A DNA stretch of 55,543 nucleotides from a virus. Taxonomy: Duplodnaviria; Caudoviricetes. This document shows positions 6,881 to 54,934 of the stretch, piece after piece; within the stretch, counting starts at the first letter, position 1; every line of letters begins with the position of its first letter. The notes beneath the pieces are model-generated. The model was not told the origin of the DNA and did no database searches. It saw nothing but the letters and a program-made list of their open reading frames with translations. The translations under genes and the position numbers were made by a program. The stretch covers positions 1 to 55,543 of the IMG/VR virus record IMGVR_UViG_3300042210_000075; one strand, written 5' to 3'.

Positions 6881-6904
6881 AGCCCCATCCTTGGGGCTTT
6901 TCTT
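6881..6904 (+). terminator. Intrinsic terminator between convergent operons
   Basis: AGCCCCA-TCCT-TGGGGCT-TTT. Confidence 0.7.
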
Positions 6905-9900
6905 TAGAAGTAATCATAGTCAGTGAGCAACGAACGGTACTTGTCGTTAATACGTACCCCTGAACTAGTTTTCTGCAGATTCTTAACGCGAGCTTTGATC
7001 GAGGTTTGAATTGCCTTACTAGTAATAGGATTCATGCGACCGTACTTACTTTGGTTCCACTTGGCGATCTGCTCCATAACTTGAGACAGAGCTTGCTTGT
7101 CACCTAGGCGGTAGGCCGTGTAGTACCCATTCATTAACTGACTACGTCGCTTAGTTAAATGCGCCTCGTAGTTCTTAGCAGCATTGTTCTCGTCATACTG
7201 GATGTTGGCACGCCCAGACGAGAAGCCAAGAGCCTGACCAGCTAACTCAACAGGCGACATATCTCCTACCACTTGGGCGCCAGTACGAGTAAATACACCT
7301 TCTTCGTTGATGTAACGAGCCATCTTGAGCATGTCTTTAACCACTTTAGGCGACATTTTCTCAGCGCTACGGATGCCGAAGTCATCACCAATATCACTCA
7401 GGCCTTGTGCAAAGCTGAATCCGATACCACCCACAACTGGACCAAGACCTTGTTTGATGTACTCCATGTATTTCTCATCGGTATCGATATCGCGATCGAT
7501 AGAGCGCACCCAAAGGTCATTTAGCGAAATACGTCCAGAGATAGAAGGTAAAGAGCCATACCAAAGTAGCGCGGCATTCTCTTTGCCTACCGCATCAGAC
7601 AACATAGCTTTTAGCTCTACTTCTGCACTCCACGGCTCATCGTCATCTCCAAAGGCGGCTTGTGCTGCATCGGCAGCGATCACCAAAGCACTCAATGGAA
7701 GCGCACCAAGGCCACCAATACCAAACGTCATTGCCAAGGTAGACAGCAGCTGCTTACGTGCTTGTGCTTTTACTTCTGGCGTTTCACCTTTCAGTGACTT
7801 CGCTAAGTTCGACCATAAGTAATACGTCATGTTTTGTGAGTATTGCTTAAACTGCAAGGCAACCGCAGCTAGATCAGACTGCATGAATCGAGCACGGTTC
7901 GTAGAGGTGTAATCGAAGTGACTTTCCCACGTATCCTTAATGGCTTGGTCTATTGCTTTCTGGTGATCACCAAACTTCTCTTTTGCCAGGCGATAAGCAG
8001 ACATGAATGTTACTTCTCGGTTGAACACTTCCGCATTATGGAAAGCCCAACCAATGATATTCATTGCCTTATTCCATGTACCTGAATACTTAGCGTTAGG
8101 ATTTTCAGCAAGACCGGCTAAGTCAGCAGCTTGTGTTACATCGATAACGCCCTGCTTCACGGCTGTTCTGAATGCTTCCAGTTCTTCGCCTTTTAGGAAG
8201 TTACCCATTACACCGTAACCGCGCTTCTTGTCCTTACCAGATAGCAATGCGGTCGCATTACTCAAGAACTCTTTGGATGTGTTCGCCATCATGTAGCTTG
8301 ACTTGGCAAAGCCATGCTTAGAGCCAAGCACAGGAATAGCAACCTGCAGGTTTTGCGTTAAGTTCACCAGCGCAGCAGCTGGCGTTAAACCTAGTAACCA
8401 AGTAAAGCCAATTGACGTCAGCTTTTGCGCCCACGCTGATCGCTGAGGGTTACGAACCCACTCATGGCGCTTATCCATCTCTTCTGTAATGCGGCTAATC
8501 TCCGCATTGTCTGAGCTGCTATCTGCATACTTTTTAATGGCAACCAAATGGTTATCGAGAATATCCATGTGATCCAATCGCGCTTGTTGGCGTGATTGCT
8601 TAAAGCCATTATCTGCCAGAACTCGAATAGCGTCGTTACTAAAACCCTCAACCCCTTTACGGTGAATAAAGTTTCTACGAAGTGAACGCCCGGGCAATGT
8701 TCGCAAATACATCTGATAAACCTGATCCGCTAGTGTGTCAGCGTTATGCTGGTTCATCTTGCTGCTACGGATGAGATCAAGCACATCGGCAACAAAAGGT
8801 AGTGACACTTGTTGACCTTCGTTACCTTGTGCTTTCATGCCAGATTTAACTTCAAATCCAGCATCACGCAGATTGTCACGCGCAGTTTCCATCTCAGCTT
8901 TTGATTCAAACATCATGTACTGGCGTTCGCCGTTCTTATCAGCAAAATCTATCCAGTAGTCACCAAAGCGAGCAAGCGGGAAGTAAAGTCCTTTCGCTCT
9001 CAGCTCTTGGCGCTGGCGAAGTTTGGCAAGCATTTCCTTGCGGATTTTCTGATCTTGAACAGCGCGGTTAATGTTCTCTTCAAGTGCTTTGTCAAACCGC
9101 TCACCTTGCTTGATATAGTAATCTCGCATTTCTCTGAACTTGGCTTTTTGCTCAGCATTGAGACGCCCCCATATAGGTTTAAGCCTCAAGTGGTCTTTCT
9201 GGCGATTCGGCTCTTGCTTGAGAAGATCACGTACCTCTTTCAGTTCTTCGTAAATCGCTCGACCACGATCAGAGTTACTACCGCCGTACTCTTTGTATGC
9301 ACGTTCTAAGCGTTGTTTCTCTGTCGTCAGCTCTTCCGTTCTTGAAGCAAATGGTTTACTCGGGTCAACATCAGCAAGTGTTGCATCATGGGCAAACTCA
9401 AAAAGCTGATCAGCGGCTTTGCGGTTCTTCTTAGCCCAGTTAGATAACTCGTCAGAAATCGTCGCAGCTTCTTCCGCTAGCGTGTTCTGAGTTGAGATCA
9501 TCGAGTTAACTTCCTGCTGGTAGCCGTCGATCATCATTTCCAAGTTCTTATCAATAAACCCAGCGACTTCACCCATTTGACGAAGCGTTAGCATGGCGTA
9601 TTTATTGCGGCCTAAAGCTTCAATGGGAGCAAAACCAGAGATCGCCGCCTTAATTCGCTTAACCAAATTCTTTTGTTTGGTGTTCAGAACTTTGTCCACA
9701 TCTGGGCGAGTGTCTCCGCTCAAAGAGTAATTGACTCGTGACTTTCCGCTCGGTGGAGTAGTCGGAGGTGGATTGTTCAAACTTGTTCTAATATTGGTTA
9801 GCAATTCCATGAGATCAGACTTGCCGTAAGAAGCAAGCGTGTTAAACCCATGACGGCGTAACCAAGCTTTTATCTTGGTGATTAACTTACCTACGGCCGA

Positions 9901-12900
9901 TTGAAGTTGGTTTCGCTCAGCTACGTGAGCAAGCAGCTCATCAAATAGAATGAAATCCGCTTGTTCTGTTGAAATCTCATTGTTTGAGACAGCGTTATTG
10001 GTCATATCAACATACTGAGAAAGGTCAACACCCATACTTCTGGCCAGCTTGAGTACACCACTCTTACCACCAATCATATTGCGAATGTTTGCCAGCTCAT
10101 TCTTTATGTCGTCACCAAACAGAGAGCGTAGGCCATGGTGACCAACCAACTCATGGAAAATGAATCGCTCTGCATGTTCTTTCGATGGGATCTTATCTGC
10201 GATTAAGTAGACCTTCTTAGACTCTGGGTCATAAAGTCCGTTAACCTTACCCTCAACACCATCATTGAAGATCTGGTACTGAATACGGTTTGGCAGGTAT
10301 CGCTCAGAACTGACCACCTCGACCATAGTTTCTGCATGCGCTAAGTCTGGTGAACCTTTGAAAATGTCTTTTACAAAAGCCTGAACCTCTTCTTTTTTCG
10401 GATCGCTGATCACCGGTCTTACCGATGCTCGATACAAGCTATAAAGTGAGACGTTTCCTTTCGCATCCACTTCAGTGCGCAGCGACTGAGCAAACTCTGA
10501 ATAGGCTTTAGAGATACCCTGATCCATTTCTTGGGCGGTTGGGTATGGGTAGTCTGAAGAGTTGTTATCGGGAAGAACGTTCGCTAGGTAATCGTTCGTA
10601 ATACCGTTGTGAGAGTTCTGTTCAATTACCCATGTTTCAAACGAACGAGCCACCAGTTCTACTTCAGTATTCCAATAGGGCTTAGAACGATAGTTATCGC
10701 GCTCGCTTGAACGTTCTGGAAGTTTTGTCTTGTGAATTGCCTCTTTGATGTTATTCCACTTCTCCACCATTTCAGGGCGAAGGCCTTCTATTGCACTCGC
10801 ATTTTTACGGCCTGAAACATTGGTACCATCACCGAAATGGTAATCCAAAGCATGAAACCATTCGTGAGCAAGTGAACCTTTACCTGAGACTTTGGTTAGG
10901 TTGATGACAAAGGTATCAGGTTCGAAGTGTGCAGCTGCTGCACTGCGACCACCTTGACCACGAGCACCAAAGGCTAAACCTAGTTTTCCACCTAGTGAAA
11001 TTGCTCGCGTAGGAATGCCCATCAATCTAGCTAAGTCCACCAGCGAATCATAAGCATTGTTGAGATCTTGCTGGCGTCGCGCACCTTCAACCCAGTTACC
11101 AAACTGAACACCACGGAAACCGAATGCGTTAGTGAAGTCTTCAGGAGTAACATTTCCTTCGCGTTCAATAATGCCATCGCGAGCTCGGTTTTCACCTGAA
11201 CGAACTTGTTCCCTTGCATCTTTACGACGAGCAATGACTTCATCTTCTAACGCTGTTCGGTTTTCTCCAAGGTAGACACGAGCTTCTTTAGTGCTGTCAA
11301 AGCCCGACTTCACTTCAACAACACGGCTACCCACTTTCACCCCGATAAAGGCATCTCCGGTGAAACGTTTCACATAGATACCCATATCAACACGTTGCTT
11401 GGTACCTGACGTTTTAGAATCCGAGTCACTTGCTTGAGCACGAATAAGCTCGATTGCTTTTGGTGCCAATGCATCAATGGATTCAGCATCAATGCTATGA
11501 CGACCATAGGATTTCTTACGCTTAAAGTTAAAACGCTTAACTATGTTGTAGTAATCGGCTTCATAGTTACCCAAGGTTTCAATTTCATCGATCGTCAGTT
11601 CATCAGAGATTTTAGTTAGCAGTTGGCTCATAGGAGAATGGTGTAGTGACAGTGAATCAAAGGCACTGTCTTTATCCATGATTGCCTTGGATAATTGTCG
11701 AACACTGTTAACGCTATCGCTCCAACGTTCCAACTTATAGCCTTTGCGTGGTTTTGAAGGGATCATTCCACGTAGAACGGTCATTAAAGCTAAATGGTAA
11801 TTAGACACGCCATCTTCAGACAGCTTTTTGAGATCAGGCTTAGGAAGAGATTTTGATAGCGGCTCTGCGGCTATTTCAGATGGAGTCATATCTCGGCTAA
11901 TGGCATCGCCAAACTTACCCCACTCATGCTTACGCGCACCATGAAGCACTTCGCCAAAGTCTTCAATCTTCTCTTTGGGTTGTTCATCAACTGGTTTTTC
12001 TTCCGTCTCTTCTGTTGGTTCAACTGCTTCATCTAGCTCTGGTTGTTGTTCCAGTTCTAATTCCTGTTCCGCGTCGTCTACTTGCGAAGTGGGTTCCTGC
12101 GTTTCTTCAACACTCTGCTCTTCACGTTGTACAACTGCTTGAGGCTGTGGTTCTTCTTGCATTGATTCAGGATCAGGCTGAACGTTAGGCATCTGTTCAT
12201 TTTGCATCTCTCTCTGCTGCTTGATTCGACGTAACCGCTCAGTCATTACCGCTTCTTTACTAATGAACTTATTCGCCAGGTTACGAACACCATTCGCCAG
12301 CTGACGCTTAACCTCTGGCAAACTGACTGCGTTTCCATCGATTTCAAGCACGGTACCTTGAGAGGAATCGACAATATCATTTACTGAGTTCATCGCCTCG
12401 GTGATCAGGTTTTCTTTAAACTCGGTTGCTTGAGGCGAAGTCATCCGCTCTTCAAAGAGCGCTTCCGCGCTTTTACGTCTTGCTACGTTTTCAGGCTTAG
12501 CGGCTTCAATCTGCGCTTGGCGCTTGGCTTCTGCCTCGAATGCTTGCAAGCGCTTTTCATGGTTCTGAAATTCAGACAGCACAGCATTAGTATTAAAACC
12601 TTTTGCTCGTTGAATACGGCGCTTCAATCGCTTGCTCATGCCCTTTGTTTTTTCAGTCATGCCAGCATAATCGCGAATTGGTTTACGACCATCTTCACGC
12701 AGCTTCATCGATGCAGGACGGTTACTAAAGTTAGATGCACGCTCGCTAGCCAATCGATTTAGCATTTCATCGGATAGCTGTTGTTGTGGATCAACTGCTT
12801 GGTCAGACTCTTGCTGCATCCGAGCAGCTTCCATATCTCTGCGAGCAGGAATGCTTTGCTGGTTTAAATTGATATCTTGCTGAACATTGTCACGATAGAT

Positions 12901-14781
12901 ACGTTGTGCCGCTTCAGTAGGCCCGTCGCTAGGATTTATTGGCTGTACAGGTTGGCGCTCGTCTTGGTATTCCAGCTCATCACGAAGGGCAATGCCTTGC
13001 TCTTCTCGAACGCGCTGCGCTGCTTCCGTTGGTTGATAATCATTAGGCAAACCATATTTAGAACGAGCTTCAGCATCCATTCGCTGTTGCAAATCATCCT
13101 GCACCATCTCTTCGTTAGGCTGAGACTCGACACCCAATGTTCTCTGGTAGGCGGCATCCACATCCTGAATAAGCCCACTATCTTCATAGCGCTTCAATCG
13201 TTGGCGCAAGATCTGATCAGGTGCCAACTCAACACGGCGGTTAGCCTCAACACGGCGATCAATCGCTGTTTGAAGTGGGTCTATATTTAGTTCGGTAGCT
13301 TGGCGAGCCATATCAAATAGCTCGGCTTCAAGCTGCTCCGCATAGTCTGGGTTGGCGTCAATATCAGGGTTTGACAGTTCACGAGAGATAGATTGATAAC
13401 GATCAGGGTCATAGGCTCGTGCTAAATCCAGAACGTTTTGCTGCTCATTACGTTCAGGTAATACACCTTTTTCTTGAAGTGCTGCGCGGGTTGCTGTTCG
13501 TCTTGCTGAAAGCTCATTCTCTATCTTACGCTGCTTAGCACCGGATAGCGCATCACTGACCGCTCTGTTTGAATCATCGTGGCGATTAAGTTCAGCGTCT
13601 AGATTAGTGTTTCCTGTGATCGGCTCTTCAACCGCTCTTTGCTCTGGGCTCAACTCTTCTGGTTGAACGTCAGCCAACGGAGCCTGCACAGGTTCTGCAA
13701 TAACCGCCTCTTCCACACTCGAATTACGATTGCGACGACCAGCCATAAATCCTTCAGCACCGTTAACCGTGCCACCAAGAACACCACCGATCACGCCTTC
13801 ATTCAGCGCACTCGAAGCGACTCCAGTAGATATATCGAAGTTAGGATCAACCAAATCACGGTAAACCTCATTCGACACTAGGGCTTCAACGCCACCTTGC
13901 GAGGCTTCTTGTGTACCTTCAATAGCAAACCCTTTCGCTAAACCACCTTTAAGACTATTTGAAGGGTTGAAGATATTGCCAGTGATACCCAAACCACGAC
14001 CACCAACAGCACCAGACAAGCCACCAATGGTATTCACTGCGGTTAACTTAGGATCGTAAAAAACTCTATCCGCTGCTTGTTCAGCTAACGCATTGCGAGC
14101 GGCGACACCAATTTGCTCATCGCTATACTGTTGGTTGTTTGGGTCTTCACGAAGCTGCCAATACATCTCAGAAAATGCCGGGCTTTTTTGCAGGTCTTGA
14201 AATGACATGCTCTGGTACTTTTCTCGCTCACTATTGGCAATCATACCGTTACCAACAACAACGCTAACCGCACCGTTTGCTACTATGTCTTTCGCCTTCC
14301 CTTTGAAACCTAGCTTTGCTGCTTCTTTTGTCGCGGCAGTTTTTAAGGCTTGCTTACCTGCAGCAGTGGCGAGTAATTTCACTCCACCTTTCGCCAACGC
14401 ACCACCAGCACCACCCGTACCAAGAAAGCTACCAATAGTACCGACACCTTGGCCTAGATAGTTAAGCCATGCTCGACCGTTTAGAGCACCTTCACCAAAA
14501 GTAAGATCACCATTCTCATCTTCAGTAAAGATTTGCTGAGTAAGGGCGTTCTGGCCAGCTTCAGACATTTCAGAGACCTGTGCATCTGCTCTCTCATTTA
14601 ACCAGTTACGCATTCCACCACCGTAGCCGGTTAACTGGTCAATAGTTTCGAACGTGCCAGCCATACCCTGATAGAAACCACGCTGAACACTGTCAACGAA
14701 ATCCCCAACCATGCCTTGTTCATCAACCGAATCGTCGGGCTGTGTGCCTAAGTTTAAGCTGCGTATTGGGCTACGATACAT
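6904..14781 (-). CDS. Giant internal virion/ejection polyvalent protein (LPD-like, two HExxH-type motifs, PLxRFG domain)
   Basis: 2625 aa; KIEDFGE..GARK, FGFRGVQFGNW, SLAHEWFHALD, FHELVGHHGL, YFPLARFG; last gene of the structural operon. Confidence 0.8.
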   Translation of the reverse strand: MYRSPIRSLNLGTQPDDSVDEQGMVGDFVDSVQRGFYQGMAGTFETIDQLTGYGGGMRNWLNERADAQVSEMSEAGQNALTQQIFTEDENGDLTFGEGALNGRAWLNYLGQGVGTIGSFLGTGGAGGALAKGGVKLLATAAGKQALKTAATKEAAKLGFKGKAKDIVANGAVSVVVGNGMIANSEREKYQSMSFQDLQKSPAFSEMYWQLREDPNNQQYSDEQIGVAARNALAEQAADRVFYDPKLTAVNTIGGLSGAVGGRGLGITGNIFNPSNSLKGGLAKGFAIEGTQEASQGGVEALVSNEVYRDLVDPNFDISTGVASSALNEGVIGGVLGGTVNGAEGFMAGRRNRNSSVEEAVIAEPVQAPLADVQPEELSPEQRAVEEPITGNTNLDAELNRHDDSNRAVSDALSGAKQRKIENELSARRTATRAALQEKGVLPERNEQQNVLDLARAYDPDRYQSISRELSNPDIDANPDYAEQLEAELFDMARQATELNIDPLQTAIDRRVEANRRVELAPDQILRQRLKRYEDSGLIQDVDAAYQRTLGVESQPNEEMVQDDLQQRMDAEARSKYGLPNDYQPTEAAQRVREEQGIALRDELEYQDERQPVQPINPSDGPTEAAQRIYRDNVQQDINLNQQSIPARRDMEAARMQQESDQAVDPQQQLSDEMLNRLASERASNFSNRPASMKLREDGRKPIRDYAGMTEKTKGMSKRLKRRIQRAKGFNTNAVLSEFQNHEKRLQAFEAEAKRQAQIEAAKPENVARRKSAEALFEERMTSPQATEFKENLITEAMNSVNDIVDSSQGTVLEIDGNAVSLPEVKRQLANGVRNLANKFISKEAVMTERLRRIKQQREMQNEQMPNVQPDPESMQEEPQPQAVVQREEQSVEETQEPTSQVDDAEQELELEQQPELDEAVEPTEETEEKPVDEQPKEKIEDFGEVLHGARKHEWGKFGDAISRDMTPSEIAAEPLSKSLPKPDLKKLSEDGVSNYHLALMTVLRGMIPSKPRKGYKLERWSDSVNSVRQLSKAIMDKDSAFDSLSLHHSPMSQLLTKISDELTIDEIETLGNYEADYYNIVKRFNFKRKKSYGRHSIDAESIDALAPKAIELIRAQASDSDSKTSGTKQRVDMGIYVKRFTGDAFIGVKVGSRVVEVKSGFDSTKEARVYLGENRTALEDEVIARRKDAREQVRSGENRARDGIIEREGNVTPEDFTNAFGFRGVQFGNWVEGARRQQDLNNAYDSLVDLARLMGIPTRAISLGGKLGLAFGARGQGGRSAAAAHFEPDTFVINLTKVSGKGSLAHEWFHALDYHFGDGTNVSGRKNASAIEGLRPEMVEKWNNIKEAIHKTKLPERSSERDNYRSKPYWNTEVELVARSFETWVIEQNSHNGITNDYLANVLPDNNSSDYPYPTAQEMDQGISKAYSEFAQSLRTEVDAKGNVSLYSLYRASVRPVISDPKKEEVQAFVKDIFKGSPDLAHAETMVEVVSSERYLPNRIQYQIFNDGVEGKVNGLYDPESKKVYLIADKIPSKEHAERFIFHELVGHHGLRSLFGDDIKNELANIRNMIGGKSGVLKLARSMGVDLSQYVDMTNNAVSNNEISTEQADFILFDELLAHVAERNQLQSAVGKLITKIKAWLRRHGFNTLASYGKSDLMELLTNIRTSLNNPPPTTPPSGKSRVNYSLSGDTRPDVDKVLNTKQKNLVKRIKAAISGFAPIEALGRNKYAMLTLRQMGEVAGFIDKNLEMMIDGYQQEVNSMISTQNTLAEEAATISDELSNWAKKNRKAADQLFEFAHDATLADVDPSKPFASRTEELTTEKQRLERAYKEYGGSNSDRGRAIYEELKEVRDLLKQEPNRQKDHLRLKPIWGRLNAEQKAKFREMRDYYIKQGERFDKALEENINRAVQDQKIRKEMLAKLRQRQELRAKGLYFPLARFGDYWIDFADKNGERQYMMFESKAEMETARDNLRDAGFEVKSGMKAQGNEGQQVSLPFVADVLDLIRSSKMNQHNADTLADQVYQMYLRTLPGRSLRRNFIHRKGVEGFSNDAIRVLADNGFKQSRQQARLDHMDILDNHLVAIKKYADSSSDNAEISRITEEMDKRHEWVRNPQRSAWAQKLTSIGFTWLLGLTPAAALVNLTQNLQVAIPVLGSKHGFAKSSYMMANTSKEFLSNATALLSGKDKKRGYGVMGNFLKGEELEAFRTAVKQGVIDVTQAADLAGLAENPNAKYSGTWNKAMNIIGWAFHNAEVFNREVTFMSAYRLAKEKFGDHQKAIDQAIKDTWESHFDYTSTNRARFMQSDLAAVALQFKQYSQNMTYYLWSNLAKSLKGETPEVKAQARKQLLSTLAMTFGIGGLGALPLSALVIAADAAQAAFGDDDEPWSAEVELKAMLSDAVGKENAALLWYGSLPSISGRISLNDLWVRSIDRDIDTDEKYMEYIKQGLGPVVGGIGFSFAQGLSDIGDDFGIRSAEKMSPKVVKDMLKMARYINEEGVFTRTGAQVVGDMSPVELAGQALGFSSGRANIQYDENNAAKNYEAHLTKRRSQLMNGYYTAYRLGDKQALSQVMEQIAKWNQSKYGRMNPITSKAIQTSIKARVKNLQKTSSGVRINDKYRSLLTDYDYF

Positions 14782-20341: not shown

Positions 20342-20575
20342 CTAAACAGAGATTCCAAACCGATCCAGAACGGATTGGTTTATTTCTTCTTCAAACCTCC
20401 ATACAGGCTCAATGTAGCCACTATCTCCTTCTGTTAGCGAAGAATCGTAGCCATCAGGATATACAGCATCGTCATATCGAACGGTAATTGTTGCCATTTC
20501 GATAATTTGGTCTCTTGTAAAATCACTTGCTTCAAAATCCGATCTTGAGTTAATAATTTTTACCTTGCCTCGCAT
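20342..20575 (-). CDS. Hypothetical protein following the DGR RT
   Basis: 77 aa, GGAG RBS, overlaps RT end. Confidence 0.6.
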   Translation of the reverse strand: MRGKVKIINSRSDFEASDFTRDQIIEMATITVRYDDAVYPDGYDSSLTEGDSGYIEPVWRFEEEINQSVLDRFGISV

Positions 20576-21552
20576 AGTTGCGTCTCCAATTTGGCTATTA
20601 AATTCTTACTATCTGCCCACTTTGCATGCCCAAGCCATGAGGCAATAAACCTACGTAGCTTTTCTGCTTGCTGTTTTTTTGTGTATTTTCTGATCTTTCG
20701 CTTTGCTGTGGTTACTGATTGTTTTCGCATCAGCTTGTGTGTTGGCCAGATCCGGTATCCAAGAAAATTTACACCTTGATTTGCATTAGTGACGGACCAC
20801 TTCGAGAGTTTTAATTTCATCTCATCAATACAGAATTTCTCGAACCTATCTTTAAGCTCCAGCATTTCTGATTTACTCCTACCAAAGATAACTATGTCGT
20901 CCATATATCTAATAAAGTTCTTACTCTTTGCTATGTGCAAAATCCACTCATCAGCGATAGTTCCGTACACATTGGCAAACAATTGACTGGTCAAATTGCC
21001 GATAGGGATCCCAGTTCCGCTGGATGGAATAAACTTCTCTATAAGTTCCAGCGTGCGTTTGCATGATATTTTTGCTCTCACCCTTGTATGCAATATTTCT
21101 CTGTCAATGTTGTAGAAGTAGCCTGAGAAATCTGTTTTCAAAACCCATACATCGCCAGACTTTAGCAGCCTTCTCATCGTAGCCTGACAGGCTATTGCTC
21201 CAGAATGCGTACCTTTCCCTTTGATGCATCCATAGCTCTGCCTGTAAAACGTTGATTCAAAGATGGGCTCAATGATGTTGTTGATTGCATGTTGGACAAC
21301 CCTATCCCTAAACGGCAAGGCTGAAATTAATCTTCGTTTTGGCTCATAAATAAAGAATTCTTTAGGCTTTCCGGGTTGATATGCTCCACTCAAAATCAAA
21401 TCAGAAAGCACCAATGAGTTTGACTCTAGGTAATCCATATAAACCATTCCACCAACGCTATTTGCGTTTCCTTTTCTTGCTTTCATTGCGGCAGTGACAA
21501 TATTGTCATAGCTCGCTATGTCGCCAATAAGATGTTTGTACTTTCTTCCCAT
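20560..21552 (-). CDS. brt: DGR reverse transcriptase
   Basis: FRDRVVQHA, TDFSGYF, GIPIGNLTSQ (DGR-type SQ), RYMDD, FLGY; no maturase or endonuclease domain. Confidence 0.95.
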   Translation of the reverse strand: MGRKYKHLIGDIASYDNIVTAAMKARKGNANSVGGMVYMDYLESNSLVLSDLILSGAYQPGKPKEFFIYEPKRRLISALPFRDRVVQHAINNIIEPIFESTFYRQSYGCIKGKGTHSGAIACQATMRRLLKSGDVWVLKTDFSGYFYNIDREILHTRVRAKISCKRTLELIEKFIPSSGTGIPIGNLTSQLFANVYGTIADEWILHIAKSKNFIRYMDDIVIFGRSKSEMLELKDRFEKFCIDEMKLKLSKWSVTNANQGVNFLGYRIWPTHKLMRKQSVTTAKRKIRKYTKKQQAEKLRRFIASWLGHAKWADSKNLIAKLETQLCEAR

Positions 21553-21687
21553 GTTATTACGTTCGACTTTCCCTTTTGGTACTCACCTACTGTAAATCTC
21601 GCAATGTATTCGCCGAAGCAGGTTAACGCAGCTGACCACAGTAGTGGTCGCCTAGTATGCCTTAGCATATCTAGCGCGAATAAAATT
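21553..21687 (-). ncRNA. DGR spacer (sp) RNA region
   Basis: Between TR and RT; hairpins GACCAC/GTGGTC and TATGC/GCATA; 12-nt complement to the avd-TR linker. Confidence 0.7.
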
Positions 21688-37749: not shown

Positions 37750-37980
37750 AAAACACCAATAGAGACAATTATTTTCATCGAACAAAACAATTGTATAACT
37801 ATATCTTTGAATAATGAAGAGATGAGTTACCGCAACGCACCTAACATAAAGTGTCAGCCAGAGTTAAGTATTGCGATGCGGTAAATAGGAGGGATATTTT
37901 GAGAATGGTCTGCACTAATGAATCGAACACTGATGCACTAGCTAACGCAGACCACTCTAAAAATAGCGCTATTACTTACG

Positions 37981-38183: not shown

Positions 38184-38268
38184 TGGCACCCCGTAGAGGA
38201 ATCGAACCTCTCACGTCCTTCCAACTTTTTACGTACTAGCTTAGAAGGCTAGTGTTGGCATACGGGGC
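38184..38268 (-). tRNA. Non-canonical tRNA-Arg(UCU)-like gene lacking the D-arm
   Basis: 7-bp acceptor stem, G discriminator, CCA; T-arm AGAGG-TTCGATT-CCTCT; anticodon arm ACTAGC-CTTCTAA-GCTAGT; only 8 nt where the D-arm should be. Confidence 0.75.
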
Positions 38269-38282
38269 ATAATCAAAATAAA

Positions 38283-38684
38283 CCTCGTCTTTCCGAGGCG
38301 TCAACGCATCTGGTTTATCAAGTCAGATACGACTGATGGTGACTAGCCACCAGCTCTGTTTGCGACTTTCCGCCTGTCATAACGGTCACCGATGAGGAGG
38401 ACACGGCCCGTTCCGATGCGATTTTACTGTCCTTCTACGTCCTAGTGGCTGGGTCTCATCACCACGTCGGCTTCAGCTTCCACCCGAGAATAGTGGCGCG
38501 GATTACGTCGTCATCTTCGATTTTCCGTCTTTATATGACTGCAACGTCATTGCCAAGAAACTTTGTAGAGCGGCTTCAGTACTATTTGAAAATTTCAAAA
38601 CTCATACGACATTAATTAAGAAATTGGTTGAAGCCACTCAACGAAGTTCCCTAGCTTAGCAATGGGCGACCTTAGACCGCCCTA
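38283..38684 (-). ncRNA. Candidate structured non-coding RNA
   Basis: No ORF >=60 aa; at least six hairpins, several with G-U pairs on the minus strand. Confidence 0.45.
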
Positions 38685-38691
38685 TGTGAAC

Positions 38692-53286: not shown

Positions 53287-53316
53287 AAAAAGGGGCATTA
53301 CGCCCCTTTATTTTTA
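53287..53316. terminator. Bidirectional terminator between early operon and int
   Basis: AAAAAAGGGGC-ATTAC-GCCCCTTTATTTTT. Confidence 0.8.
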
Positions 53317-54534
53317 TCCTGCCAATGAAACCCTCACTGCGCTATTTTCAACAATGTGTTTACTCCACCAGCTCATCATCTTACGTCGAAGTTCAAACCA
53401 ATCTGAGCGGTTATAGGCGCCACGTATACGGTCGTCATCGCCATGAGCAAGCGCAGCTTCAATAACATCCTTATTGAATTCCGCTTCATTGAGTGTAGTT
53501 GAAGCTAACGAGCGCAAACCATGAGCACATGTGCGATCAACAAACCCTGCCCTACGCAATGCCCGGTTCAATGTTTCTGAGTCAGTATGCTTGGATGGAG
53601 CTCGAACCGAAGGGAAAATAAATTCTCGGTGACTGCTGATCGGCTTAACAGCCTCAAGGATAGACATTACTTCATCGGTTAACGGGACACGGTGATCACG
53701 GTCCATCTTCATTCGCTCTGCAGGAATAGTCCAAACCTTCTCATTAAAGTCTATCTCACTCCATGAAGCGCCAGCTGCTTCAACAGGACGAACCATCGTG
53801 TGAAGCTGGAATTCGAATAAGCATCGAGTAGCAAAGTACATATTGCTGGTGGACATCTTCTGCATGAGCTCTGGAAGCTCTTCAGGTTTAAGCGCTGGTA
53901 AGTTCTTGGACTTTGGTTTTCTGAATGCTGCGGCAATACCAGACAACGGATTGTGATGTATAAGGCCACTATTCACTGAATACACCATGACCGAGTTCAA
54001 GATGGCGCAAACACGCTTAACGGTTTCAAGTAGCCCTTGTTTCTCGATACCTCGTAGTGCCGCGATAGCTTGGGGGGCTGTGATTTGATTTACAGGAAGC
54101 TTGCCTAAGGCAGGGTAAACATACTTACGAAGTTTTTGAGTGTGGCCAGCAAGTGTTTTTTCACTCACAGTATCCTTTTTAGTATCGAGCCACATTTCAG
54201 CAACGCGTTCCAAAGAACTGTTTTGCTCTTCAGATAATACCGCTCTTTCAGTTTCACGCTGAATCTGTGGATCAATACCTTCGGCTACTTGCTTTCTAAA
54301 TCGAGTAGCAATCTCTCTAGAATCTGCCAAAGAATAAGTTGGATATGGGCCAATGCCCAAGTTAGTAACCTTCCCGTTGATTGGACGAACGTAACGGAAG
54401 ACCCAAGACTTTGAGCCGGTCTTTCTAACGAATAAATACAAACCTCCGCCATCAGATAACTTGTAGTCCTTATCTTTGATCTCGGCAGTCTGCACAGAAC
54501 GTGCGGATAGCTTGTTAATACTTCTCTGTGCCAT
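53314..54534 (-). CDS. int: P4/CP4-family tyrosine integrase
   Basis: YKLSDGGGLYL..GSKSW..GPYP..SLA arm domain; VRP.E, RMK, HGLR, LAH, GAY catalytic residues. Confidence 0.95.
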   Translation of the reverse strand: MAQRSINKLSARSVQTAEIKDKDYKLSDGGGLYLFVRKTGSKSWVFRYVRPINGKVTNLGIGPYPTYSLADSREIATRFRKQVAEGIDPQIQRETERAVLSEEQNSSLERVAEMWLDTKKDTVSEKTLAGHTQKLRKYVYPALGKLPVNQITAPQAIAALRGIEKQGLLETVKRVCAILNSVMVYSVNSGLIHHNPLSGIAAAFRKPKSKNLPALKPEELPELMQKMSTSNMYFATRCLFEFQLHTMVRPVEAAGASWSEIDFNEKVWTIPAERMKMDRDHRVPLTDEVMSILEAVKPISSHREFIFPSVRAPSKHTDSETLNRALRRAGFVDRTCAHGLRSLASTTLNEAEFNKDVIEAALAHGDDDRIRGAYNRSDWFELRRKMMSWWSKHIVENSAVRVSLAG

Positions 54535-54843: not shown

Positions 54844-54860
54844 ATTTGGCGGTGAGCAAG
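54844..54860. repeat. att core within tRNA-Ser 3' end
   Basis: Identical to 2324-2340. Confidence 0.93.
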
Positions 54861-54934
54861 AGATTCGAACTCTCGATACGTTGCCGTATACACACTTTCC
54901 AGGCGTGCTCCTTAAGCCACTCGGACAACTCACC
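54847..54934 (-). tRNA. tRNA-Ser(GGA) (host)
   Basis: 88 nt; anticodon arm CACGC-CTGGAAA-GTGTG, long variable arm, TTCGAAT loop, GCCA end. Confidence 0.97.

Follow-up and report, generated by a model that had tools for sequence, protein, structure and literature searches.

The open text of a 2020 review of non-canonical tRNAs (PMC7609411) places arm-less tRNAs only in mitochondria and does not contain the word 'phage', and according to that of a 2024 paper (PMC11551756), every known bacterial tRNA is a cloverleaf and armless tRNAs occur naturally in mitochondria alone. The latter, in the same text, reports that E. coli translation accepts a tRNA without a D-arm, the synthetic mini HisT. Some of the 8/4 and 9/3 allo-tRNAs come from phage tRNA clusters, and these RNAs resemble tRNA-Sec in searches (PMC5389517); the main text of that paper, as distinct from its supplementary figures, contains no occurrence of UCU, pseudoknot or lacking. 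Within the open full-text literature, which excludes subscription-only papers and supplements, no account of any phage tRNA that lacks the D-arm or has a pseudoknot came to light. Here we describe an 85-nucleotide (nt) element in a complete 55.5-kb provirus (IMG/VR record IMGVR_UViG_3300042210_000075, positions 1 to 55,543, the whole of which is called the window). The element occupies positions 38184-38268 of the minus strand, from G1 through an encoded CCA, and reads there exactly as quoted in an initial annotation made from the sequence alone. We conclude from its sequence and that of its relatives that it is probably a functional elongator tRNA-Arg for AGA, and by wobble for AGG, with a non-cloverleaf body, carried as a phage codon-supply gene.

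ARAGORN scoring, proposed as a check in the initial annotation, gave no call at the element site in any of six option sets (three thresholds, with lowered ones among them, and three metazoan-mitochondrial modes); the sole ARAGORN tRNA of the whole window is a tRNA-Ser(GGA) at 54847-54934. At gathering thresholds, an Rfam scan of the whole window found no tRNA match at the element and reported only the RNA of a phage diversity-generating retroelement (DGR) elsewhere, and in a permissive regional scan the best match at the element was tRNA-Sec (RF01852; 31.5 bits, E 0.0003, gathering score 47). Compared with the cloverleaf family (RF00005), the element has the terminal stem, though of 8 bp, the discriminator, the CCA, and an anticodon arm whose 7-nt loop has U33 and a purine at 37, while the D-arm and the detector scores are missing. 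The minimum free energy (MFE) fold of the element (-27.6 kcal/mol, z-score -2.2) contains the acceptor stem, the T arm and a long arm in which a CCAAC/GTTGG helix (helix X) prolongs the anticodon stem.

We collected relatives from viral, genome and metagenome collections with a covariance model, built from nine sequences and leaving out a second core helix (helix Y), and with pattern scans that did not specify the anticodon. The family comprises 66 instances, 37 of them distinct, in Vibrio, Acinetobacter, Escherichia, Salmonella and Salicola phages, proviruses and metagenomes. Relatives score 71-108 bits against the model, except for two identical 54-bit copies and one truncated match. Canonical tRNAs caught by the patterns, a 5'-truncated copy (L152) and 11 weak matches (24-31 bits) were omitted from the tallies. 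The canonical tRNAs caught by the stricter patterns, such as tRNA-Pro(GGG), had a low model score or none, and a loose 14-base pattern scan of viral contigs returned 118 loci, none of them a real member by the model and all of them chance matches.

A single plan is common to all 37 distinct sequences, which are 83-89 nt long and over which the counts below were taken (a 'cell' is one pair in one sequence; Table 1). The acceptor stem has 8 bp, with 294 of 296 cells paired, and its last pair, 8-74, is Watson-Crick in every sequence (G-C in 27, A-T in 6, T-A in 2 and C-G in 2). G1-U81 is a wobble, like the first pair of the canonical tRNA-Arg(UCU) in Vibrio genome G001. Because pair 8-74 occupies the fifth T-stem position, the T stem has 4 bp rather than 5; it is invariant except for one position, which changes from A to G in 3 sequences, and carries a canonical and invariant TTCGAnT loop. 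The initial annotation had described the stems as intact, as they are, kept so by selection and not by luck, but had divided acceptor and T stems 7/5 where the actual split is 8/4 in all 37 sequences; among the first nine sequences read, the fifth T-stem pair that it drew (58-74) forms a standard pair just once. The anticodon arm starts directly after helix X, with 221 of 222 stem cells paired and five of six pairs covarying. Its form is normal, as had been said, although the 6-bp stem counted earlier is a 5-bp stem plus a nearly invariant A-U, present in 36 of 37 sequences and the counterpart of A26/U44 in the G001 tRNA. The loop is CTTCTAA in 32 of the 37, with CTTCTAC, CTTCTAT, TTCCTAA and CTCCTAA as its other forms.

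None of the 37 sequences has a D hairpin. The gap between the acceptor and anticodon stems is 7-9 nt throughout, and 5 of these nucleotides pair 3' of the anticodon arm to form helix X, in which 184 of 185 cells are paired; its outer C-G pairs are invariant, and its inner pairs 13-46 and 14-45 occur as five and four pair types, respectively. Helix Y (ACGT/ACGT) has 3-4 bp. Its pair 36-55 is C-G in 24 sequences and G-C in 13, and its pair 37-54 is C-G in 17, G-C in 11, T-A in 7 and T-G in 2, without a mismatch in either; the outer pairs are weaker (A-T in 32 and T-A in 21 of 37). The helix Y register used in this tally was the best of three offsets, which introduces a small bias. Since helices X and Y cross, the core is a pseudoknot. 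These results bear out the initial annotation in its description of a tRNA-Arg(UCU)-like RNA without a D hairpin, in which CCAAC/GTTGG forms a pseudoknot in place of the D-stem: the anticodons are arginine only, and the normal D-arm that it said would count against it if found in close relatives is absent from all of them.

In an alignment of the family (A3) whose fit to the model involved every helix but Y, 98.0% of cells pair, as against 75.4% in shuffles and 38-44% with partners slid. The covariation score is 0.592, compared with 0.147 for shuffles, and none of 500 shuffles scored as high. Because helix Y is absent from the model, its covariation is independent of the fit. Moreover, in a structure-blind mutual-information scan, the top 15 of all column pairs are 15 proposed base pairs, including 8-74, 13-46, 14-45 and 37-54. 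Overall, every helix covaries with the exception of the invariant T stem, and the CCAAC/GTTGG and ACGT/ACGT pairings are real, far beyond chance. Both the BLASTn homologues and the CCAAC/GTTGG covariation that had been suggested as checks were thus found, and among the roles proposed for the element this covariation favors that of a rewired tRNA.

A further proposal, that TTGGAAGG pairs with CCTTCTAA to mask the anticodon, was not supported. The masking helix pairs in 85.4% of cells against a shuffled mean of 85.1%, 202 of 500 shuffles do at least as well, and just one cell is changed on both sides. Positions 45-46 covary with 13-14 and not with the nearly invariant A27/A28, and the two segments are complementary because their columns are conserved for other reasons. 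With no covariation in the masking helix, the conformational switch built on it has no support.

The anticodon is TCT in 35 distinct sequences and CCT in 2, both of them arginine anticodons. A 115.7-kb viral contig carries two tandem members 6 nt apart, the first with CCT and the second with TCT (L224:1449-1627), a pair that mirrors the canonical tRNA-Arg(UCU) and tRNA-Arg(CCU) pair of G001; another CCT copy (L172) lies within a 20-tRNA array that has no other tRNA-Arg. Members are placed in tRNA clusters, on the same strand as their neighbors and 7-8 nt from tRNA-Leu(TAA) or tRNA-Lys(TTT). Repertoires were taken from whole-record tRNA scans and from ARAGORN on phage records. Vibrio phage Gary has 21 ARAGORN tRNAs with a sole tRNA-Arg (ACG), Escherichia phage Av-05 has 14 tRNAs and Acinetobacter phage KARL-1 has 7, the last two without any tRNA-Arg. 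In these three sets the element is the only predicted decoder of AGA and AGG (AGR), where it would fill a gap; phage B9 carries it without any other tRNA. In scans of the 53 fetched loci, the sole tRNA-Arg calls were three that overlap the element itself. We rejected the ARAGORN 'tRNA-Arg(tct)' calls over family members L127, L155 and L157 as true folds; on inspection, those over L127 and L155 are forced cloverleaves with mismatched acceptor stems and D stems of 2-3 bp.

Demand for AGR decoding in the window can be compared with that in G001, which serves as a stand-in for the window's own host. AGA and AGG make up 179 of 762 arginine codons (23.5%) in 45 long open reading frames (ORFs) of the window, or 12.0 per 1000 codons, and 73 of 852 (8.6%) in 43 ORFs from 60 kb of G001, or 4.4 per 1000, so that AGR use in the provirus is about 2.7 times that of the stand-in. 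The highest share in the provirus belongs to the DGR reverse-transcriptase gene (RVT_1, 20560-21552), with 17 AGR among 23 arginine codons. The DGR retroelement RNA (RF03022, 74.2 bits) adjoins this gene at 21556-21677.

The element travels as a discrete unit. In a blastn search of its region against 50,697 phage records, 41 records share the 85 nt and nothing else. They include the Vibrio phages Gary and GRLPWR (Demerecviridae), Escherichia phage Av-05 (Vequintavirinae), Acinetobacter phages of the Lazarusvirus group (Straboviridae), ME3, B9 and Salicola phage SCTP-2, and the matches listed from this search are all either unannotated or beneath a 'hypothetical protein'. In Gary, ME3, K470 and Lazarus, nearby tRNAs are annotated and the element is not. 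With the 85 nt alone as query, 342 of the 50,697 records match (304 Vibrio, 32 Acinetobacter, 2 Escherichia, 2 Aeromonas, 1 Salicola and 1 Salmonella), and no tRNA annotation covers the element among the 60 of these matches listed. Three partial blastn matches scored with the model all proved to be full members, and the other partial matches are candidate members. Carriers thus span lytic Straboviridae, Demerecviridae and Vequintavirinae as well as large unclassified phages, and no neighbor gene is shared among them. Identical 85-nt copies occur in several different flank contexts, and similarity ends exactly at G1 and at CCA.

Among cellular genomes, an identical element lies inside a prophage of G001, and in the genus of G001 at least 2 of 151 sampled genomes carry the element, G001 being one of them, in a count made with strict filters and candidates scored in part. 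There was no match in 5,426 complete E. coli genomes and 72,556 plasmids. A search of sequencing runs found 7 runs with matches, at small shares except in one probable DNA holder. In metatranscriptome run X4, an assembled contig of 896 nt places a near-identical element between other tRNA-like sequences; four runs gave assembled contigs only, and we therefore infer nothing from them on transcription.

How such an RNA might work as a tRNA can be modeled part by part on canonical geometry. The acceptor branch retains the standard 12 stacked pairs as 8+4, the number recognized by EF-Tu according to the text of a study of allo-tRNAs (PMC5389517). Helix X stacked on the anticodon stem would give 11 layers, near the stack of D-stem, position 26 and anticodon stem in ordinary tRNAs, with the strand 5' of the anticodon stem taking the place of the 3' strand of the D-stem. 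GTTGG followed by AAGGA resembles a D-stem 5' strand and a short D loop with G18, G19 and A20, and CGTGA appears to run into the T stem in the manner of a variable loop. Helix Y, in which the first nucleotides past the anticodon stem pair with the strand entering the T stem, may lock the junction together with the A-rich strand, whose role in groove docking is no more than inferred. The GG and the T loop are both invariant, which suggests that the elbow contact is kept, G51-G52 probably docking on the T loop like G18/G19. Although there is no D loop, an invariant A follows the invariant GG in all 37 sequences, as in the D loop of canonical tRNA-Arg(UCU). This A53 remains A even in the 16 of 37 sequences whose helix Y partner cannot pair with it, suggesting an A20-like identity role. 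The identity set of bacterial arginyl-tRNA synthetase (ArgRS) consists of C35, U or G at 36, and A20. C35 and U36 are present in every anticodon of the family (TCT or CCT), and A53, which is probably an A20-type arginine identity element, would together with them allow charging by the host ArgRS. By analogy with canonical tRNAs, then, we would expect an L-shape, the contact of G51-G52 with the T loop, A53 acting as A20, and the processing, charging and decoding that go with them.

Several points weigh against this assignment. The anticodon switches in just 2 of 37 sequences, and the discriminator is variable (G in 18, T in 10 and A in 9), the presence of T included. G001 has canonical tRNA-Arg(UCU) and tRNA-Arg(CCU) genes, so that an additional supply is not strictly needed there. 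The equivalences of A53 with A20 and of G51-G52 with G18/G19 are drawn from canonical geometry, and an RNA that needed nothing more than recognition by tRNA-binding proteins would likewise keep its anticodon loop, T arm and CCA unchanged.

If the body was rewired against a tRNA-directed nuclease, or against a tRNA-depleting defense that reads the D-arm or elbow, the RNA could be a nuclease-proof spare or a decoy, which we consider unlikely. A radically altered body with an unaltered anticodon loop is what escape from a body-recognizing enzyme should look like; in three Vibrio proviruses (L133, L139 and L153) the element stands beside a phage tRNA-Lys(TTT) gene, tRNA-Lys(UUU) being a classic nuclease target, and in G001 a Lys/Asn-like tRNA whose anticodon loop has 8 nt is found about 280 nt away. 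Phage tRNAs are also on record as counter-defense, in the abstracts of two papers, through anticodon-loop changes (PMC10264068) and through a viral tRNA that neutralizes PARIS (PMC11464382). However, our analysis identified no nuclease specific for tRNA-Arg(UCU), and the loop matches base for base that of canonical tRNA-Arg(UCU) in G001, so that it offers no escape from a loop-recognizing nuclease. Moreover, a pure decoy has no need for a 12-bp acceptor branch with an encoded CCA or for a UCU/CCU isoacceptor pair, and would leave unexplained why the element is the sole AGR decoder in near-complete phage tRNA sets. A decoy role fits the evidence less well than a rewired tRNA, and a version in which the RNA escapes while decoding is compatible with a functional tRNA and is not a true rival to it.

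The remaining readings are progressively less likely, from a non-translational RNA through serine mischarging to a pseudogene. The 3' half of the element is unusually invariant (the T stem, and GGA in 37 of 37), perhaps on account of a specific protein partner, the standard tRNA finders do not accept the element, and the window also contains a retroelement, all of which would suit a regulator, primer or protein handle that keeps tRNA features for processing or stability. Such a job is nonetheless improbable, given diverse carriers without a common neighbor gene, flanks that differ even for identical copies, a downstream ORF without a Pfam family, and an anticodon that is confined to the arginine AGR box, includes a CCT and TCT pair and complements phage tRNA repertoires. 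Charging with another amino acid such as serine, with AGA and AGG recoded or mistranslated, is very improbable: the best Rfam match is tRNA-Sec, helix Y looks like a variable arm, and the 8/4 shape is common to serine-accepting allo-tRNAs as the text of PMC5389517 has them, but helix Y has only 3-4 bp with its loop locked in helix X, C35, U36, GGA, G73 and G1-U72 are common to the element and canonical tRNA-Arg(UCU), and the window's ORFs use AGR at ordinary arginine frequencies in ordinary proteins. There is next to no probability that the element resembles a tRNA by chance or is a tRNA pseudogene in decay. Absence of the D-arm and of any call by tRNA finders would fit decay, yet 37 distinct sequences keep all helices through compensatory changes, as the initial annotation anticipated when it took the intact stems to argue against decay, and identical 85-nt units move between flanks; the covariation data already refute this reading.

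We therefore return to a functional tRNA-Arg with a rebuilt body. Its boldest form is a tentative proposal that we hold to be doubtful as a whole: the element would be the first natural non-cloverleaf elongator tRNA of the bacterial cytosol, reaching the L-shape by a re-threaded core, and would have spread because it decodes AGA and AGG while escaping host enzymes that read the D-arm side, such as defense nucleases or turnover factors. The main risks in setting the element apart as a new variant are a prior description elsewhere, or that it is not charged.

Table 1. Coordinates of the element, its parts and a promoter-like site in the window. Positions within the element are counted from G1.
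Feature	Coordinates	Strand	Basis
Whole element, predicted non-cloverleaf tRNA-Arg(UCU) gene	38184..38268	-	Sequence; covariance-model match 107 bits
Acceptor stem 5' strand, positions 1-8, GCCCCGTA	38261..38268	-	All 8 pairs covary
Linker TG, positions 9-10, acceptor stem to helix X	38259..38260	-	Alignments; family length 2-4 nt
Helix X 5' strand, positions 11-15, CCAAC	38254..38258	-	Covariation
Anticodon arm, positions 16-34: A-U, 5-bp stem and loop CTTCTAA	38235..38253	-	Covariation
Anticodon TCT	38243..38245	-	
Helix Y 5' strand, positions 35-38, ACGT	38231..38234	-	Covariation; abuts anticodon stem
A-rich connector AAAAA, positions 39-43, helix Y 5' strand to helix X 3' strand	38226..38230	-	A-rich in all members
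Helix X 3' strand, positions 44-48, GTTGG	38221..38225	-	Covariation; MFE fold
AAGGA, positions 49-53	38216..38220	-	G51-G52-A53 invariant, GGA in 37/37
Helix Y 3' strand, positions 53-56, ACGT	38213..38216	-	Covariation; crosses helix X
T arm, positions 59-73: 4-bp GAGG/CCTC, loop TTCGATT	38196..38210	-	148/148 cells paired
Acceptor stem 3' strand, positions 74-81, TACGGGGT	38188..38195	-	All 8 pairs covary
Discriminator G82 and encoded CCA	38184..38187	-	CCA encoded in 34/37
Promoter-like TTGACG, 18-nt spacer, TATTTT	38275..38304	-	Consensus scan; 1 found, 1.6 expected by chance

Upstream of the element lie a DUF968 gene and a DHH/DHHA1 phosphoesterase gene, and downstream a 58-aa ORF without a Pfam family, a gene for a VRR-NUC nuclease and one of 243 aa whose match, of CxxC zinc-finger type, is weak and below threshold. 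From their translations and position, we take the next ORFs to be a putative holin, endolysin and spanin; lambdoid phages typically carry tRNA genes in such a region. The promoter-like site is weak evidence, one consensus match that statistically carries no weight; the end of its second hexamer lies 7 nt before G1, and a terminator-like hairpin (38282-38299) overlaps it. On the minus strand, the DHH-family gene is separated from the element by about 420 nt (38269-38690) that have no ORF of at least 40 aa and are moderately structured (folding z-score -2.5); the last 120 nt before G1 are unchanged in L178 and L149, and other proviruses have tRNA-Lys or an ORF there. Just past the 58-aa ORF, also on the minus strand, is a very stable long hairpin (37898-37965; MFE -32.3 kcal/mol for 101 nt, z-score -6.1, none of 200 shuffles as stable) whose tip resembles a T loop (GTTCGATTC). 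Further away, a 2,625-aa ORF with the large-polyvalent-protein domains LPD39, LPD5 and LPD1 occupies 6904-14781 on the minus strand, and a tyrosine integrase gene (53314-54534) adjoins the tRNA-Ser(GGA) near the record end, in what is probably the provirus integration site.

Other tRNAs neighbor the element at related loci. The adjoining tRNA-Lys(TTT) genes of the three Vibrio proviruses are at L133:9350-9421, L139:1168-1239 and L153:1886-1957. In G001, the neighbor about 280 nt upstream of the element (L195:79-153; C16) has an 8-nt anticodon loop and is called 'tRNA-?(Asn|Lys)(attt)' by ARAGORN; this is possibly a phage tRNA with an altered loop, a type that has been tied to defense evasion. 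Two loci of Acinetobacter Lazarusvirus type (L183:623-697 and L132:5296-5370) have, in the same cluster as the element, a CTA-anticodon tRNA that ARAGORN names 'tRNA-Pyl' and that is a candidate amber suppressor.

If the element is charged and decodes, the statement that all bacterial tRNAs are cloverleaves would be wrong for phages. There would then be a second, naturally evolved tRNA core, in which a pseudoknot stands for the D hairpin and which the ordinary ArgRS, EF-Tu and ribosomes of bacteria can use; phage tRNA inventories would have been systematically undercounted; and engineers of orthogonal tRNAs would gain a compact new scaffold. The element also bears on the codon-supply and counter-defense explanations of phage tRNAs.

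The closest described relative is canonical tRNA-Arg(UCU) of the argU type, as at locus L184 of G001. In common with the element it has the CTTCTAA loop, an A26/U44-type pair above a 5-bp anticodon stem, a first-pair wobble (G1-U72), G73, a canonical T loop, a CCA that is encoded, and a GGA, there in the D loop. Canonical tRNA-Arg(UCU) genes occupy the same niches too, namely phage tRNA clusters and the regulatory or lysis region of temperate phages. In contrast to them, the element has no D hairpin, an 8/4 rather than 7/5 branch, its GGA 3' of the anticodon arm and two crossing helices as its core, and it is missed by ARAGORN and the Rfam tRNA model. The tRNA-Sec family (RF01852) has a UCA anticodon and a 13-bp branch, compared with TCT or CCT and 12 bp here, and the match of 31.5 bits is below 47. 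In the figures of Mukai and colleagues, allo-tRNAs reportedly carry a D-arm and a long free variable arm. The element shares its 8+4 branch with the 8/4 and 9/3 forms, which comprise allo-tRNAs and tRNA-Ser and tRNA-His of bacteria and phages (Mukai et al, 2017; PMC5389517), but the text of that paper gives allo-tRNAs a D-arm and a long free variable arm, whereas the element has no D hairpin and a helix Y of 3-4 bp with an X-paired loop. The tRNA-Sec-based searches of that study might have met such sequences.

The mitochondrial D-armless tRNAs, such as mammalian and nematode tRNA-Ser, likewise lack the D hairpin and have a short connector between acceptor and anticodon stems, as the open texts of PMC7609411 and PMC11551756 describe. 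They are organellar, however, and described as flexible or Y-shaped without contact between D and T loops, whereas in the element the T loop is canonical, the GG is invariant, and two covarying helices would rebuild a compact core; it is borne by proviruses and phages, leaves the mitochondrial modes of ARAGORN silent and would serve the bacterial cytosolic machinery. Mini HisT shows that the E. coli synthetase, EF-Tu and ribosome accept a tRNA without a D-arm, but it is, by the text available, an artificial 62-nt molecule made by plain deletion, unstable and in need of a host pnp mutation (Edelmann et al, 2024; PMC11551756), in contrast to a natural element of 83-89 nt that is structurally compensated. 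Defense-evading phage tRNAs (PMC10264068; T5 tRNA-Lys against PARIS, PMC11464382) similarly differ from host isoacceptors, yet evasion as set out in the abstract of PMC10264068 proceeds through anticodon-loop mutations, while here the loop is unchanged and the body rebuilt. Because the cloverleaf family, tRNA-Sec, the allo-tRNAs and the armless tRNAs of mitochondria each have defining features that the element lacks, we set it apart from all four as a variant.

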